Below, piece after piece: positions 31,261-61,670 of a stretch of 64,000 bases of DNA. The DNA comes from a virus (lineage: Duplodnaviria > Caudoviricetes), in the IMG/VR virus record IMGVR_UViG_3300003937_000325; one strand, 5' to 3'. How positions within the stretch are numbered: the first letter of the stretch is position 1; each line of letters opens with the position of its first letter. The position numbers and the translations under genes were made by a program. The notes beneath the pieces were generated by a model. It searched no databases. It worked only from the letters and a program-made list of their open reading frames with translations, and was not told where the DNA came from.

Positions 31261-32892
31261 CTACGTTAGTGGAAGACAACCCGATTGAGTAGACTCACCA
31301 GTTATTGGTGTTGATATATCGTTTATGGTTCCACAGGTTGTTGTTCCAATTATTTGTACATTCTTTAATTGTACATTAGTTCTGTTTAATCCCGTAATAG
31401 GACAATTACATGAACCACTACTAACGAATCTAGGTAATGTAACCGTTGTACTTACAGTACCGTTAAAAGTTGAACTACCGTCTATAGTAATAGTTGTATC
31501 TCCACTACTACTAAATGTATAAATAGTAATTTGAGAGTTAGAGCAATTTTCTGGGGGTGGTGAACCTAATCCAACAGGTGATGTTGAACTGATACTTACC
31601 GCATTACCATCTAAACTACCCGTAAACGTATTTTCATATGTTACAGGGTCAGAATTACCATTATCAGGGTACGTACTAATTCTAGTATGAGCGAAAGCTA
31701 AATCAAACGATACCTGCACACCTGATGGTAACTGAGGAGTGACGACCACATCATATTGATAACTAACAACTTGTTCTCTTAAGCTATTAGTCACTACTTG
31801 GTTAAACTTATTAAGTTGTATTGTATATGACGGTGCACCCACTCCTTCACTAATCGTAAAGTTAGTAGTCGCAACATTACCTGAGTCATCTGTTACTTGA
31901 CCAACATAACTACCTGGTTGAACATTATTAAATAGACCTGTCAATTGAGAAGACGTTATACCTTGAATAACATAACTATAAGGTGATGAACCTCCATTAG
32001 CATTCATTATTACAGTACCCAATTGACCTTCACATTGTGGTGATATTGGTGTAACACTTAAGGATAAGTTGGTTAAATTAGTTGGACATGTCCCTACTGT
32101 CATCACCCAATTTGCCTTTGTCGGTGGTACACCTTGATTTTGCCACGTTCCTGTTGGTTGTAATTGTGGAGGACTCTGAATTAGTCTCATTGCACCTTGG
32201 TTACCGCTAATAGAGGTCCATACTAATACTTCCCACCAACCATTATTAATATTGTATGTTAAGGTAAGACCATTTACAGTATCTAACCATTGGAAATTAC
32301 CATTATTATCAGTACCGTTAGGTGTGAAATTATATTGTTGATTTAATTCACTATGACTCAAACATAACGGGTCTTGAGCAGGAGGCGTAGGTGTAGGTGG
32401 GTTACAAACAGTACAAGTAGTATAAGAACTATTAATTGTTAATCCAGACACTTCAAGTCCCGCCGAACTAACAGGTCCAATAAACTCATAACATCCCGGT
32501 ATTTCATTAAAAATAATTGTAGGTTTGAAATTTGGGAATGGTGGTTCATAAGTTGCCCCTGAAACATAAACTGTTCGAGATGAAAATCCTGGACATGTAA
32601 TAAACTTGTAAACTGTTTCGGTACTACTACCCACAACACATGTTGTTTTTTTAATATAATCTCCAAAATAATCAACAACATTAGCTATATATGTACCTGG
32701 AGATAAATTAGTTAAAGTATTACCTTGTTGACCATTAGTCCACGTTATAGAATAAGGAGGGGTACCGCCAAATACTTGAACTACGGCACTACCATCAGAT
32801 GCTGTTGGGGAAGATGCGTTAGTAACATTACACTCCACCTCCATAGGTATTATGGTTATTATCGTACATTGATTTCCTGTTAATCCTGCCAT
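31261..32892 (-). CDS. virion fibre/adhesin-like protein with SprB-type repeats and Cys module
   Basis: DGSAVVQVFGGTPPYSITWTNG...LTNLSPGTYIANVVD and GGSSPYSY...FNNVQPGSYVGQVTD; start set at MAGLTG. Confidence 0.7.
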   Translation of the reverse strand: MAGLTGNQCTIITIIPMEVECNVTNASSPTASDGSAVVQVFGGTPPYSITWTNGQQGNTLTNLSPGTYIANVVDYFGDYIKKTTCVVGSSTETVYKFITCPGFSSRTVYVSGATYEPPFPNFKPTIIFNEIPGCYEFIGPVSSAGLEVSGLTINSSYTTCTVCNPPTPTPPAQDPLCLSHSELNQQYNFTPNGTDNNGNFQWLDTVNGLTLTYNINNGWWEVLVWTSISGNQGAMRLIQSPPQLQPTGTWQNQGVPPTKANWVMTVGTCPTNLTNLSLSVTPISPQCEGQLGTVIMNANGGSSPYSYVIQGITSSQLTGLFNNVQPGSYVGQVTDDSGNVATTNFTISEGVGAPSYTIQLNKFNQVVTNSLREQVVSYQYDVVVTPQLPSGVQVSFDLAFAHTRISTYPDNGNSDPVTYENTFTGSLDGNAVSISSTSPVGLGSPPPENCSNSQITIYTFSSSGDTTITIDGSSTFNGTVSTTVTLPRFVSSGSCNCPITGLNRTNVQLKNVQIIGTTTCGTINDISTPITGESTQSGCLPLT

Positions 32893-32903
32893 TTTATTAT
32901 TTT

Positions 32904-59700: not shown

Positions 59701-61670
59701 CAACTAAATGGTCCGTTACCTGTTTGTTGACCTAATAGTAATCCACCCGCCGCAGTGGTTGACGTATTTTGAATAGTATATGGTTTTGTACCACCTGAAG
59801 GACTTATTAATATAATACCACCTTTAGGATTAGTACAAGTACCTGTAACTTCAAAACTATAAGTTATCGGACCTTCATCACAACTAACAACACATACGTC
59901 ACCACTAATTTGTACACCTTGCATCGAAACATTAATATCAACACATACCTCTAACCCTACTTCATTACCTTGTTGTAATCTTCCACAACAATCCGTATAC
60001 GTATAAAAACCATCTGTAATACCTGAAAAACAACCCTCCCCCACATTTGAAGTTGGTGTTGGTGTGGGTGTAGGCGTAGGGGTATAACTAGGAGGGACAA
60101 AGGGACTTGAAGTTGGTGTTGGTGTGGGTGTAGGCGTAGGGGTATAACTAGGAGGAACAAAGGGACTTGAAGTTGGCGTGGGAGTTAGAGTATTTGTGGG
60201 AGTAGGTGTAGGAGACAATCTAACTTCAGGTGAAGGTGTTGGTGTTGGCGTGAGAGTATTTGTAGGGGTAGGTGTGGGTGTAGATTCTTGACATATAATG
60301 TCAGTACACTTTATTGGCCCCACTGAAGCAACACTATTATCCCAATATATTATAGTAACATAAGGTTCTAAAAGTGGTTCATTAATTCTATTATAACACC
60401 CATTAACTCCACCTACATTTTCAAATAAATAGCCATTAAAAGGTGGGCTCGTATATAAATCATTATCAAAATCTATAACATTAAATCTAAATATTTTATT
60501 ACCTGAACACGCAGAAAAATAATAATATTCATCTAACTCAGAAACATTATTTTGACAATCAGTACAATTTTCATAAACGTTTGTTATTTCATGTCCTGAT
60601 GTTATATTAGTACTTATTAGTACTTGGTCAACTTTATCCGTTTCACCACCAAAACAGAACGTCTTACTTTCAACGAATTGCGGCGTTATAAATCCAGTTC
60701 CAAGCGGGTTACCCCACGTTAACGTTGAAGCACTAAAAGTACTTTGACCCTGATTTACCCCGTTACAATCATTACCAGATGGTTGAAATTTATATATATT
60801 ATTAAATGGATTATTAGAAACACAATCGGAACAATCAGAATACCAATTTGATACTATGTCGTAATAACCAACACCTAAAGTACCTGAATAGGGTTGTTGA
60901 ACATTATTAGGCTTTAAACACGGACCCCCCCATATTGAAGAATATGATTCTACCCTATCCCTCATATCACCAGAATATTGCACACCACTCGAATCTGTTA
61001 TTAAATTACCGTAACAATCATCGGACATTGTAACCCACCCATCATATAAACCGTTAAAGTAGTTTCTGGCGTTTGTTGCGAAATAGGGTATTTGTGTATA
61101 ATATGACCCTAAACCACTTACTAAGTCTGATGTAATAGAACTGGCATTATTAAAATCATAGTTTAAAACCCCATTATTAGTAATGTGACTATAATCATTT
61201 ACACTTGTTAGAAAAATAAAATCATACCTATTAGTATCCGCACCACCTATTACTTTTGATAAATCATTAAACGTATTTGCACTATAAAAATTAGTACTGT
61301 ATCTAGGAGATTTAAATGTCCCACTTGGACCTATTACATCAATATAGTTTTGAGCGAAAAATGTTGTATTAATATTAAACGTTGAACCTATATAAACCGC
61401 GACTGAAGTATCTGATACCTTACTCCAATATTCACCTGTAACCATTTGAGTGTCAAAAGGGATTGTTGCTGAACCTAAATTTGTAGCTTTCCAATATCTT
61501 GACCTAAATGACCAAGTTGTATCAGGGTTAGTAAGTAGATGGTTCTCCGTAAACGCTCTATTTAATCCTGCGGGTGTAGCCGCATCGGGCCAAGCCATAT
61601 ATACGGTAGAACCTGTAGTTGGTGAACCTACAGTCGCTATTTGTTCTAATTTAAAATATAAAGTCGCCAT
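56793..61670 (-). CDS. 1625-aa virion adhesin-like protein with tandem SprB-type repeats, Cys modules and Pro/Thr linkers
   Basis: series of ~70-80-aa repeats ([23 protein letters not shown]...[22 protein letters not shown]...[16 protein letters not shown]). Confidence 0.75.
60047..60176 (-). repeat. 60-bp tandem duplication ([16 protein letters not shown] units)
   Basis: two near-identical 60-nt copies (one mismatch, ggagggac vs ggaggaac) plus a partial third. Confidence 0.85.

Follow-up and report, generated by a model that had tools for sequence, protein, structure and literature searches.

The window analysed here, a 64,000-nt stretch of the tailed-phage record IMGVR_UViG_3300003937_000325, raises the question of what a phage glycosylates when it encodes a cassette of sugar-adding enzymes beside proteins with long Pro/Thr (PT) tracts. 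Its conserved set of sugar-adding enzymes, headed by a relative of those that initiate mucin-type glycosylation in eukaryotes, adjoins virion-type proteins whose Thr/Pro stalks run to hundreds of residues. The phage thus probably sugar-coats its own fibres, and cytoplasmic mucin-type O-glycosylation of the virion PT stalks by the phage cassette is considered the probable, if by no means assured, function. New in this analysis are a conserved pair of GT60 and two-domain glycosyltransferase genes, PT genes adjacent to it in at least seven lineages, and a contrast in (PT)3 content between GT60-positive and GT60-negative phages. The phage lineage carrying the cassette is widespread and marine, and the stretch was present word-identical in seawater metagenomes from no fewer than 17 studies.

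Composition and boundaries of the cassette

The four minus-strand ORFs of the initial annotation were recovered at the same coordinates (Table 1), and their position directly upstream of the gene for the 2435-aa protein was confirmed, with a gap of 54 nt. Of the “structural module” said to surround them, the virion-type neighbours were found, while the module as such is presumed. Upstream, a terminator-like hairpin (47142-47123) follows the tail-fibre-like gene, and TATAAATA is located at 46959-46952 before the GT60 gene. The tail-fibre-like gene is a single 382-aa ORF in the related genome G001, whereas the window copy is without an internal piece and shifts frame.

Table 1. Coordinates of the cassette, the PT-tract genes and other features of the window.
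Coordinates	Strand	Feature	Basis
14260-15141	-	Second SDR epimerase/reductase	Pfam Epimerase
17149-18054	-	dTDP-glucose 4,6-dehydratase-like gene	TIGR01181 E 1e-90; Pfam Epimerase
32904..34820	-	638-aa protein with PT tract	phrog_15511 E 1.7e-20
34927..42234	-	Giant protein of 2435 aa, next gene downstream of cassette; proposed main acceptor/fibre	
42289..43959	-	Two-domain glycosyltransferase, 556 aa, conserved GT60 partner	Pfam HtrL_YibB, AF2, Foldseek, VIA
43959..44573	-	Class I SAM methyltransferase, 204 aa, variable middle	Weak Pfam match, SAM motif I
44581..45579	-	Possible GT-B-type/GT90-like glycosyltransferase, 332 aa, variable middle	Atlas feature scores
45591..46859	-	GT60/PF11397 polypeptide-HexNAc-transferase-like enzyme, 422 aa, proposed initiator	Pfam, phrog, motif, AF2 model
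46860..47168	-	Upstream boundary of cassette: terminator-like hairpin, TATAAATA, small divergent ORF	
47169..47901	-	Tail-fibre-like gene just upstream of cassette, split in two overlapping frames	phrog_17490 E 1.5e-35
53739..56681	-	980-aa protein with two PT tracts, proposed acceptor	
56793..61670	-	1625-aa protein with SprB repeats, Ig-like stretch and PT linkers	Pfam

RNA-library contigs from four runs all ended at 46847-46884, that is, at the upstream boundary, and one contig of 3351 nt covered the genes from GT60 through the two-domain glycosyltransferase, which counts in favour of glycosylated PT stalks; read depth was uneven along the stretch. The cassette forms a separate transcription unit with its own promoter region, and the motif TATTTATA, located 26 nt upstream of the start in both the 2435-aa and the 980-aa PT genes, is absent before it; both points count against that function. 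The four cassette proteins are without transmembrane segments, since their maximal 19-residue Kyte-Doolittle hydropathy is only 0.58-0.86, and Pfam families of membrane-embedded initiating transferases, flippases, polymerases or the GtrA/B type were absent from the cassette.

The first enzyme had been annotated as a GT60 homologue, and this assignment was borne out by profile, motif and fold. It matched PF11397 (GlcNAc) over most of the profile in two stretches (E-value 8.6e-65, 219.9 bits against a cut-off of 21) and phrog_24687 with an E-value of 4.5e-164, and more than 7200 homologues were found. In the DSH motif (Q95-x-D97-S98-H99), Q95, D97 and H99 were invariant and S98 nearly so among 15 homologues of 30-82% identity. 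The AF2 model (pLDDT 88.8) comprises a GT-A catalytic domain and a unique C-terminal beta domain at about residues 330-422. The top structural match in Swiss-Prot was Dictyostelium Gnt1 (E-value 5e-24, TM 0.63), followed by about 30 ppGalNAc-Ts, and the top 35 matches in the PDB were all ppGalNAc-Ts. In the reviews PMC8724618 and PMC9472816, each characterised GT60 member that is named glycosylates Thr or Hyp of proteins, either in Skp1 or in mucin-like domains. The phage enzyme is on this basis a predicted protein-directed HexNAc-transferase, for which the family suggests alpha-GlcNAc from UDP-GlcNAc as donor.

The annotated fusion of HtrL-like and GT-A parts was likewise recovered, as a Pfam HtrL_YibB match (PF09612; residues 3-249, E-value 2.3e-16, 60.6 bits, cut-off 24.1) followed by a second GT-A half. 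The NCBIfam HtrL equivalog score of 67.9 does not reach the cut-off of 264.9, and the protein is therefore not an orthologue of E. coli YibB. For the AF2 model (pLDDT 84), the top Foldseek matches were the tandem GT-A enzymes LH3, K4CP, COLGALT1, LARGE1 and Mimivirus R699. VIA related residues 1-266 to BoGT6a/ABO transferases (Z 13-14) and residues 287-556 to B4GALNT1, POMGNT1 and GnT-I (Z about 15). By these models the HtrL_YibB half at the N-terminus adopts a retaining, GT6-like fold and the C-terminal half, in which E381-D382-D383 is invariant, an inverting-type GT-A fold.

The two middle genes are less conserved in kind. As annotated, one encodes a class I SAM methyltransferase, with a clear SAM motif I, QIVEIGTAGGGTT, and a weak, below-cut-off match to Methyltransf_24 (E-value 8.5e-4); further matches to RMNT_CmcI (E-value 0.021) and a rhamnosyl O-methyltransferase (E-value 0.007) suggest that it is probably a sugar O-methyltransferase. 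In a fusion protein of locus L029 this domain sits between the two glycosyltransferase halves, and such fusions in relatives count for a role in stalk glycosylation. The GT-B-like assignment of the other gene is a weak lead: language-model (Atlas) features scored 0.95-0.96 to Glyco_trans_1_2/GT90/RXYLT1_C clusters, but no Pfam match was obtained at E<0.01 (Glyco_trans_1_2 at 0.2). This protein is present in G001 (99.7% identity) and in part in G007.

The PT-tract proteins as candidate acceptors

Long Pro/Thr tracts were found in all three proteins for which they had been described. In the 2435-aa protein the tract covers 902 aa (residues 604-1505, about nt 37720-40425) with 422 Thr, 202 Pro and 175 PTxT units, and is accompanied by Cys-rich modules, a globular domain of roughly 580 aa and more PT linkers. 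In the 980-aa protein, two tracts of 160 and 514 aa (about nt 54327-56453) separate a small N-terminal domain from a C-terminal domain of 195 aa, and the tract of the 638-aa protein is about 160-170 aa long. Shorter PT linkers had been annotated in two further proteins; they were found in the 1625-aa protein (about 130 aa in total; SprB E-value 3.3e-19, Ig_J E-value 6e-4), but a fifth PT protein was not, and a PT tract was absent from 31261-32913.

The tracts, of 902, 514, 160 and about 165 aa, are all found less than 15 kb away from the GT60 gene and cannot be chance. Pro/Thr tandem-repeat domains and a homologue of an initiating polypeptide HexNAc-transferase are in this way jointly encoded, and the combination recurs in relatives. 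The DNA repeats under the tracts are degenerate (60-78% matches), and the tracts thus represent conserved peptide, not recent slippage. A homologue of the 2435-aa protein in locus L030 contains about 1000 aa of TPTPSITPTSSV repeats instead. The globular domain of the 2435-aa protein is 65% and the C-terminal domain of the 980-aa protein 38% identical to G001; such divergence of the distal domains, beside enzymes that are 96-100% identical, is as expected of receptor-binding fibres. The PT proteins are candidate virion components. Against glycosylated stalks counts that the globular parts of the PT proteins matched no family in Pfam and phrog searches, and that PT linkers are frequent in unglycosylated proteins.

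In the proposed mechanism, the unstructured PTxT tracts would first receive HexNAc from GT60 on their Thr/Ser hydroxyls (going by the family, alpha-GlcNAc with UDP-GlcNAc as donor), after which the two-domain enzyme would add two more sugars, one by its inverting GT-A half and one by its GT6-like retaining half, and may act repeatedly. Lineage-specific enzymes, here the GT-B-like protein and the O-methyltransferase, would tailor the glycan. Fibres that are extended and mucin-like, resist proteases and end in variable binding domains would result. The scheme presumes the acceptor, the donor sugars, the sequence of steps (priming, extension, capping), the location in the virion, a stiff bottle-brush form and a benefit. 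The nucleotide-sugar enzymes at 14260..18054 (Pfam Epimerase E-values 2.4e-54 and 4.8e-37) could supply donors.

Hydroxyproline, offered in the initial annotation as an alternative to Thr, was not upheld as acceptor: the two nearby 2OG oxygenases resemble the LH3 lysyl hydroxylase domain (E-values 2.7e-29 and 3.6e-7) and Mimivirus L230, matched B. anthracis P4H with an E-value of 2e-3 only, and are absent from XacN1. A dedicated prolyl 4-hydroxylase of the Skp1 type, acting before GT60, was thus looked for in the window and not found, the oxygenases there being LH3/L230-like.

An unlikely and bolder version holds that the trio of GT60, GT6-like and GT2/GT13-like activities goes beyond a short glycan and builds polymers of a repeating disaccharide on the hundreds of Thr of each fibre, giving phage proteoglycans. 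The abundant marine lineage would then stand, on the side of prokaryotic viruses, in the ancestry of eukaryotic mucin-type (GT60/GT27) and Skp1 glycosylation. The combination of alpha-type (GT6-like) and beta-type (GT2/GT13-like) domains in one protein is the architecture of polymerases of glycosaminoglycan and matriglycan, among them K4CP, PmHS2 and LARGE1.

Distribution and alternative targets

In IMG/VR, ENA and JGI loci, GT60 and the two-domain glycosyltransferase are conserved as a pair, in thousands of metagenomic relatives, and enclose a variable set of tailoring genes, which elsewhere comprises carbamoyl-, pyruvyl- or methyltransferases or extra glycosyltransferases. Homologues of the two-domain enzyme adjoin GT60 in nearly all loci, and the pair is present in four cultured phages (XacN1, Xoo-sp13, CM1 and RAS14). 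In at least seven lineages the immediate neighbour of the cassette is a gene with a PT/PTS tract, and this holds also where the PT proteins are non-homologous. Adjacency is not universal, as the cassette lies beside replication genes in XacN1 and L031.

Independence of GT60 from PT-rich proteins, which would speak against the initial annotation, was checked by counting (PT)3 codon patterns: GT60-positive phages carry PT tracts (XacN1 31, Xoo-sp13 23, RAS14 11, G001 27, G007 1) and five GT60-negative large phages are essentially without (Atu_ph07 0, SCTP-2 1, RaK2 0, Bellamy 0, B23 0), in a small comparison of five against five genomes that covers three GT60-positive clades and is not phylogenetically independent. 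The reversed control gave 0. The check thus did not overturn the initial annotation. PT tracts were absent from G004 (17% complete) and from G006, which has a distant GT60-like gene and no partner glycosyltransferase.

Virion glycosylation in this group has a precedent, since at least two Schiff-stained glycoprotein bands were seen in XacN1 virions, and the two XacN1 glycosyltransferases were proposed as their makers (Yoshikawa et al. 2018, PMC5852040). The novelty claimed in the initial annotation is reduced to this extent; family and acceptors were not named there, and one of the two enzymes is a GT60 homologue. The bands could stem from the other one, ORF328. The cassette might also glycosylate other parts of the virion, for example capsid, sheath or globular fibre domains, in the manner of mycobacteriophages and chloroviruses, with the PT tracts as plain spacers. 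This is on the whole unlikely, yet carries some weight: the XacN1 bands may be proteins of this kind, mycobacteriophage glycans are placed on capsid and tail-tube subunit C-termini (cited in PMC12619734), and XacN1 and L031 have no PT gene beside the cassette. The GT60/GT27 clan, however, works on unstructured Thr/Ser/Pro-rich peptide, and the PT tracts track GT60 across genomes and adjoin the cassette in those seven or more lineages. Modification of host surface polysaccharides (LPS, capsule or teichoic-like polymers), blocking superinfection, a role suggested for polymorphic glycosyltransferase clusters in jumbo cyanophages, is improbable. HtrL/YibB is located in the E. coli LPS core region, the variable middle recalls O-antigen diversification, and single-domain HtrL-like genes are present in cyanophage sugar clusters, which counts for this target and against PT stalks. 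Variable phage glycosyltransferase clusters have been interpreted as host-surface modification by Iyer et al. (2021, PMC7824862), but the present cassette is without a transmembrane protein, flippase, polymerase, ligase or phosphoglycosyl-transferase, its initiator belongs to a polypeptide-transferase family, and it sits among fibre-type genes.

It is very improbable that a host protein or a non-structural phage protein is glycosylated for takeover or regulation, as Skp1 is by Gnt1; the nearest structural relative is indeed this cytoplasmic single-substrate enzyme, the enzymes are soluble and the operon promoter region is separate, but the PT-tract association would be left without explanation and a switch needs no such enzyme variety. 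Rather, a conserved core of three activities with lineage-variable tailoring suggests a surface glycan under diversifying selection. The slimmest chance is given to hypermodification of phage DNA, with glycosylated hydroxymethylated bases as in T-even phages or TET-associated glycosyltransferases. The C-terminal GT-A half matched TAGT below threshold (E-value 0.0038, 17.6 bits, cut-off 27.5), phrog_842 (beta-glucosyl-HMC alpha-glucosyltransferase) was matched with an E-value of 1.2e-5 over only 59 residues, and the XacN1 cassette adjoins replication genes. Yet BssHII, NaeI and SpeI cut XacN1 DNA as its sequence predicts (PMC5852040), hydroxymethylase, TET and C5-methyltransferase genes were not seen within the window, GT60 is nearest to peptide-acting enzymes, and known DNA GT-A enzymes are a different family (bioRxiv 10.1101/2023.12.21.572611).

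If glycosylation of the PT stalks is true, tailed phages abundant in the sea would use cytoplasmic enzymes of their own to make glycoprotein fibres of a mucin-like kind, and virion glycosylation, so far a matter of some actinophages and giant viruses, would extend to a large group of environmental phages. The eukaryote-centred GT60 family would gain its first viral and first prokaryote-associated function, and a simple, soluble, bacterially expressible route to dense O-glycosylation of Thr/Pro repeats would be at hand. Adsorption and decay of the phages, the stability of their particles and how these stick to marine gels and mucus would be touched as well. The cultured relative XacN1, with glycoprotein bands already seen, allows a direct test.

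Comparison with known glycosylation systems

XacN1 shares with the window phage GT60 (46% identity), the two-domain glycosyltransferase (38%, E-value 1e-135) and many PT-tract proteins, but its cassette has a carbamoyltransferase and two further genes in the middle, its location is beside replication genes, and its tracts do not exceed about 190 aa and are thus shorter. The jumbo cyanophage sugar clusters (Iyer et al. 2021) are similarly variable, with single-domain HtrL-like proteins, carbamoyl- and methyltransferases and nucleotide-sugar enzymes; in contrast, they are without GT60, Bellamy and B23 are without (PT)3 tracts, and the clusters were interpreted as modifying the host surface. Mycobacteriophages (Freeman et al. 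2023), chloroviruses and mimiviruses likewise use virus-encoded cytoplasmic glycosyltransferases on virion proteins, independently of host secretory machinery, but with other enzyme families and other acceptors (capsid and tail-tube C-termini, Vp54 N-glycans, fibrils), and without mucin-like tandem-repeat stalks.

With the protist GT60 enzymes (Gnt1 and the Golgi pp-alpha-GlcNAc-transferases of Dictyostelium and T. cruzi) the phage enzyme shares the Pfam/CAZy family, the DxH (DSH) motif and the GT-A fold. As with Gnt1, it is soluble, and the presumed next enzyme of its pathway is a two-domain glycosyltransferase, as the bifunctional PgtA is in Skp1 glycosylation; as with the Golgi enzymes, whose acceptors are Thr/Pro mucin domains, similar PTxT repeats are present in the window. 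Its identity to Gnt1 is only 24%, and it has the extra C-terminal beta domain, no signal anchor and no partner prolyl hydroxylase, and is encoded by a tailed phage. The partner halves are GT6-like and GT2/GT13-like instead of the GT2 and GT74 of the Skp1 pathway, an analogous architecture made of other families. The animal GT27 ppGalNAc-Ts, the next-best structural relatives with a DSH metal motif, differ in family, in their ricin-type lectin domain and in their Golgi location, where the phage enzyme would be cytoplasmic; the phage tracts nevertheless share with animal mucins the dense Pro/Thr/Ser tandem repeats extending over hundreds of residues.

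Organisation of the cassette and identity of its enzymes

The window as a whole belongs to a large T4-type tailed phage with a GC content of ca. 30%, and contains genes for a primase, gp46/gp47-like SbcCD, a RuvC-like resolvase, a dCMP deaminase and a PNKP-type phosphatase. Its nearest record was G001, a 119-kb IMG/VR fragment with 51% of sampled words in common. All four cassette ORFs of the initial annotation were recovered with unchanged coordinates in a single long minus-strand gene run. Word-for-word matches to the cassette stretch were present in seawater and marine metagenomes from at least 17 studies, and a DNA similarity search with the cassette against cultured phages gave no match.

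Features of the window discussed in the text (minus strand, −; plus strand, +)
Feature	Position	Strand	Remarks
SDR epimerase/reductase (second SDR)	14260-15141	−	
dTDP-glucose 4,6-dehydratase-like gene	17149-18054	−	TIGR01181, E 1e-90
PALP-family PLP-dependent enzyme	23421-24296	−	among replication genes; E 9.5e-63; phrog_11528
2OG-Fe(II) oxygenase, paralogue 1	25154-25789	−	LH3/PLOD3 lysyl hydroxylase domain, E 2.7e-29
2OG-Fe(II) oxygenase, paralogue 2	25933-26544	−	LH3/PLOD3 lysyl hydroxylase domain, E 3.6e-7
Large protein	31261-32913		SprB repeats
638-aa protein	32904-34820		tract of ~165 residues
Giant 2435-aa protein	34927-42234		902 consecutive tract residues; 422 Thr, 202 Pro, 175 PTxT units
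Two-domain GT (556 aa)	42289-43959	−	cassette
Methyltransferase	43959-44573	−	cassette
GT-B-like protein (332 aa)	44581-45579	−	cassette
GT60	45591-46859	−	cassette
Small ORF (~50 codons)	46963-47120	+	between terminator hairpin and GT60 start
Terminator-like hairpin	47142-47123		upstream edge of cassette
Tail-fibre-like gene	47169-47901	−	directly upstream of cassette; phrog_17490
980-aa protein	53739-56681		tracts of 160 and 514 residues
1625-aa protein	56793-61670		SprB repeats; shorter PT linkers, ~130 residues in total

The HMM search placed the proposed GT60 gene unambiguously in PF11397/GT60 (E 8.6e-65). Fold comparison was needed, as direct sequence searches of PDB with the GT60, 332-aa and 556-aa proteins returned nothing useful. 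The AlphaFold structure of GT60 was predicted from 15 homologues with pLDDT 88.8; its best match among Swiss-Prot models was Dictyostelium Gnt1, the Skp1-hydroxyproline GlcNAc-transferase (E 5e-24, TM 0.63, 24% identity), followed by about 30 polypeptide GalNAc-transferases, and the first 35 matches in PDB were ppGalNAc-Ts without exception. The motif Q-x-D-S-H-x-R-F was invariant in GT60 homologues down to 30% identity, and its D-S-H is predicted to be the DxH metal site of the GT60/GT27 clan. Residues ~330-422 form an additional beta domain in the model, outside the coverage of the structural matches. More than 7200 GT60 homologues were found in the metagenome protein collection, many of them 75-92% identical and encoded on contigs as long as 305 kb.

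The 556-aa protein proved to be the HtrL-like/GT-A fusion that had been proposed, its N-terminal half matching HtrL_YibB (E 2.3e-16) and another domain following; in its model (pLDDT 84) both halves are GT-A. As a whole the model matched the tandem GT-A enzymes LH3, chondroitin polymerase K4CP, COLGALT1, LARGE1, heparosan synthase 2 and Mimivirus R699. Residues 1-266, the HtrL half, resembled retaining GT6 enzymes (BoGT6a, Z 13.9; ABO transferases, Z 13.2-13.7), and residues 287-556 inverting GT-A enzymes (B4GALNT1, Z 15.3; POMGNT1, 15.1; GnT-I, 14.9; also RmlT), with E381-D382-D383 invariant in the C-terminal half. The two middle assignments stood in part: the putative methyltransferase has a clear SAM motif I and a weak family match, and the 332-aa protein is GT-B/GT90-like by language-model features only, with no significant family match. 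No hydrophobic segment fit for a membrane span was found in any of the four cassette proteins.

The downstream edge of the cassette is marked by a hairpin overlapping TATTTATA, 26 nt before the giant gene. Altogether, TATTTATA lies 12-26 nt ahead of six starts, including three of PT or neighbouring genes, and not ahead of GT60. This position is suggestive, but as a late promoter TATTTATA was rejected, its count being not above chance (20 vs 17.5 expected) and the GT60 operon being without it. Contigs identical to the window over the cassette were present in four marine RNA libraries, and one of them, 3351 nt long, reached from GT60 as far as the two-domain GT. In all four runs the contigs stopped at 46847-46884, near the GT60 start. 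Contig depth was 3-15 over the cassette against 50-170 over the neighbouring 703-aa gene, which is unlike an even carry-over of DNA. As contigs, they speak for presence in RNA libraries rather than for level, strand or timing.

The small ORF upstream is divergent from GT60, and a 58-aa gene occupies the matching position in the compared loci L029/L030. In the window, the tail-fibre-like gene is divided between two frames of 150 aa and 112 aa that overlap; its G001 counterpart is one 382-aa ORF, relative to which the window is without an internal piece and has an altered frame. A true pseudogene, a frameshift or an error in the assembly could each account for the split.

A conserved enzyme pair with a variable middle

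Comparative genomics of the GT60 cassette is the main new result. The comparison comprised 23 IMG/VR loci, 4 ENA/JGI loci and 4 cultured phages, i.e. XacN1 and Xoo-sp13 of Xanthomonas and CM1 and RAS14 of Stenotrophomonas. A homologue of the two-domain GT almost always followed GT60 within a few genes (in XacN1 as ORF330, with 38% identity, E 1e-135), and in the cultured-phage collection a full-length two-domain GT occurred in exactly the four GT60-bearing records. When cultured relatives were sought by tblastn with the DNA polymerase of locus L031, nothing was found at E 1e-30.

The genes enclosed by this pair varied: the GT-B-like protein and methyltransferase in the window, an FkbM-type methyltransferase and two unknown genes in L029/L030, an unknown gene, a GT-D-like gene and a polysaccharide pyruvyl transferase in L031/L032, a carbamoyltransferase and two unknown genes in the XacN1 group, and a set of genes that includes a second GT60 paralogue in L019-L022. 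Two GT60 copies were also present in L006, one of them ~4.8 kb upstream of the pair, and in three lineages a methyltransferase domain was fused to or inserted in the two-domain GT. Tailoring enzymes that vary around a constant core of putative initiator and extender form the pattern of diversifying selection on a glycan.

The small IMG/VR contig G008 (28,647 bp; loci L066-L067), which has direct terminal repeats and is rated complete, carries a homologue of GT60 with 51% identity together with a single-domain HtrL-like gene, and two of its proteins have PT tracts. Should the rating be correct, the GT60/PT system would extend beyond jumbo phages. Single-domain HtrL-like genes (~268 aa) were also found in the cyanophages Bellamy (Synechococcus; L086) and B23 (L087), within sugar clusters of kinase, nucleotidyltransferase, epimerase, GT, carbamoyltransferase and methyltransferase genes from which GT60 is absent.

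Pro/Thr stalks and their association with GT60

The PT tracts of the 2435-, 980- and 638-aa proteins were as large as first described. The DNA coding for the repeats is degenerate (60-78% matches), and it is therefore the peptide that is conserved. The initial criterion of P+T ≥ 0.7 overlooked Ser-containing tracts, such as that of the giant protein's homologue in L030, in which ~1000 residues of TPTPSITPTSSV stand in place of PTxT, and was replaced by P+T+S. Since the globular parts of the PT proteins matched no family in Pfam, PHROGs or Atlas, with weak ConA-like and tail-fibre leads only, their place in the virion is something we infer. A Hint/intein-like N-terminus of the giant protein was an impression to which Pfam gave no support.

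Cassette enzymes of the window and of G001 were 96-100% identical, against 65% for the globular domain of the giant protein and 38% for the C-terminal domain of the 980-aa protein. The G001 counterparts of these two stalk genes lie at 89172-95681 and 107531-110452, and the giant protein there is 2170 aa long, with a different PT-tract length. By this comparison, the stalks, variable in length, seem to carry exchangeable distal modules for host recognition. Regarding the host, SprB, a gliding-adhesin motif of Bacteroidota, is repeated in two large proteins of the window, which hints at a Bacteroidota host, in agreement with the low GC and marine source. The moraphage lineage, for which hosts among the Bacteroidota and four core GT orthogroups have been published (PMC12619734), may or may not be the lineage of the window.

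According to the P+T+S criterion, a PT or PTS tract was encoded in a gene adjoining the cassette in at least seven lineages (G001/L004, standing for that of the window, L005, L007, the L008 group, L029/L030, L031 and L019-21), even where the PT proteins were mutually non-homologous. XacN1, the GT60 of which is only 46% identical, has 14 ORFs with PT tracts, including ORF350 with ~190 Thr/Pro-rich residues next to an annotated structural protein; ORF325 and the ORF370-372 type are further PT proteins of this phage, and neither Lys nor Arg occurs in PT tracts. The counts of a (PT)3 codon pattern differed clearly. Matches numbered 31 in XacN1, 27 in G001, 23 in Xoo-sp13, 11 in RAS14 and 1 in G007, all with GT60, and in the records without GT60 they numbered 1 in SCTP-2 and 0 in Atu_ph07, RaK2, Bellamy and B23; the reversed pattern, used as control, gave 0 in every record. 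These ten records, a small and phylogenetically non-independent sample, did not refute the proposal on the ground that the initial annotation had named, GT60 independent of PT proteins. Exceptions to the pairing were G004, a 17%-complete fragment, and G006, whose distantly related GT60-like gene has no two-domain GT as partner.

Predicted glycosylation and comparison with known systems

The best-supported mechanism, which we consider probable, is that the phage O-glycosylates its own Thr/Pro stalks in the cytoplasm, with nucleotide sugars as donors. GT60 would initiate the glycan, the two-domain GT would attach a beta-type and an alpha-type sugar, perhaps in repeated rounds, and the variable enzymes would tailor the product, in the window by methylation. 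The methylated sugar may be a 6-deoxyhexose, given the dTDP-glucose 4,6-dehydratase-like gene and second SDR at 14-18 kb, which suggest a phage-encoded supply of 6-deoxyhexose nucleotide sugar. In purified XacN1 virions, at least two Schiff-stained glycoprotein bands were observed, and the authors, who already supposed that the phage glycosylates its own virion, suggested that its two GTs produce them (Yoshikawa et al. 2018, PMC5852040); one of the two, ORF334, is a GT60 homologue. Hydroxyproline as alternative acceptor found no support when a P4H partner was sought: the 2OG oxygenases of the window are lysyl-hydroxylase-like, also resemble Mimivirus L230, match prolyl hydroxylases far more weakly, and are absent from XacN1. 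Collagen-like GXY repeats, on which a lysyl hydroxylase could act, were not found in the window.

Other targets have to be weighed against the stalks. That the cassette glycosylates other virion proteins is unlikely, and modification of host surface polysaccharide, as proposed for jumbo cyanophage clusters (PMC7824862), is more unlikely still, as neither membrane nor lipid-carrier components occur in the cassette. A target among host or regulatory proteins seems very improbable. Hypermodification of DNA finds some similarity in TAGT and phrog_842, but this is sub-threshold only, and the XacN1 genome was mapped by BssHII, NaeI and SpeI digestion (PMC5852040); DNA that can be so restricted argues against bulky modification, and on both grounds we rate DNA as the least probable target. 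The predicted glycosylation of the PT stalks through GT60 is, at the level of sequence, well supported.

According to reviews, characterised GT60 enzymes either start mucin-type glycans of the GlcNAc-alpha-O-Thr kind, as in Dictyostelium and T. cruzi, or act on the hydroxyproline of cytoplasmic Skp1, in which pathway sugars 2 and 3 both come from one bifunctional protein (PMC8724618, PMC9472816). The phage layout of GT60 and two-domain GT echoes this Skp1 order of a GT60 enzyme followed by a bifunctional GT. No link of GT60 or PF11397 to phages was met in the literature searched. Virus-encoded virion glycosylation is already known from mycobacteriophages, chloroviruses and mimiviruses; new here are the assignment of the enzyme to GT60, the conserved core of GT60 and two-domain GT around a variable middle, the breadth of this core in marine and other metagenomes, and its recurrent pairing with mucin-like PT/PTS stalks.
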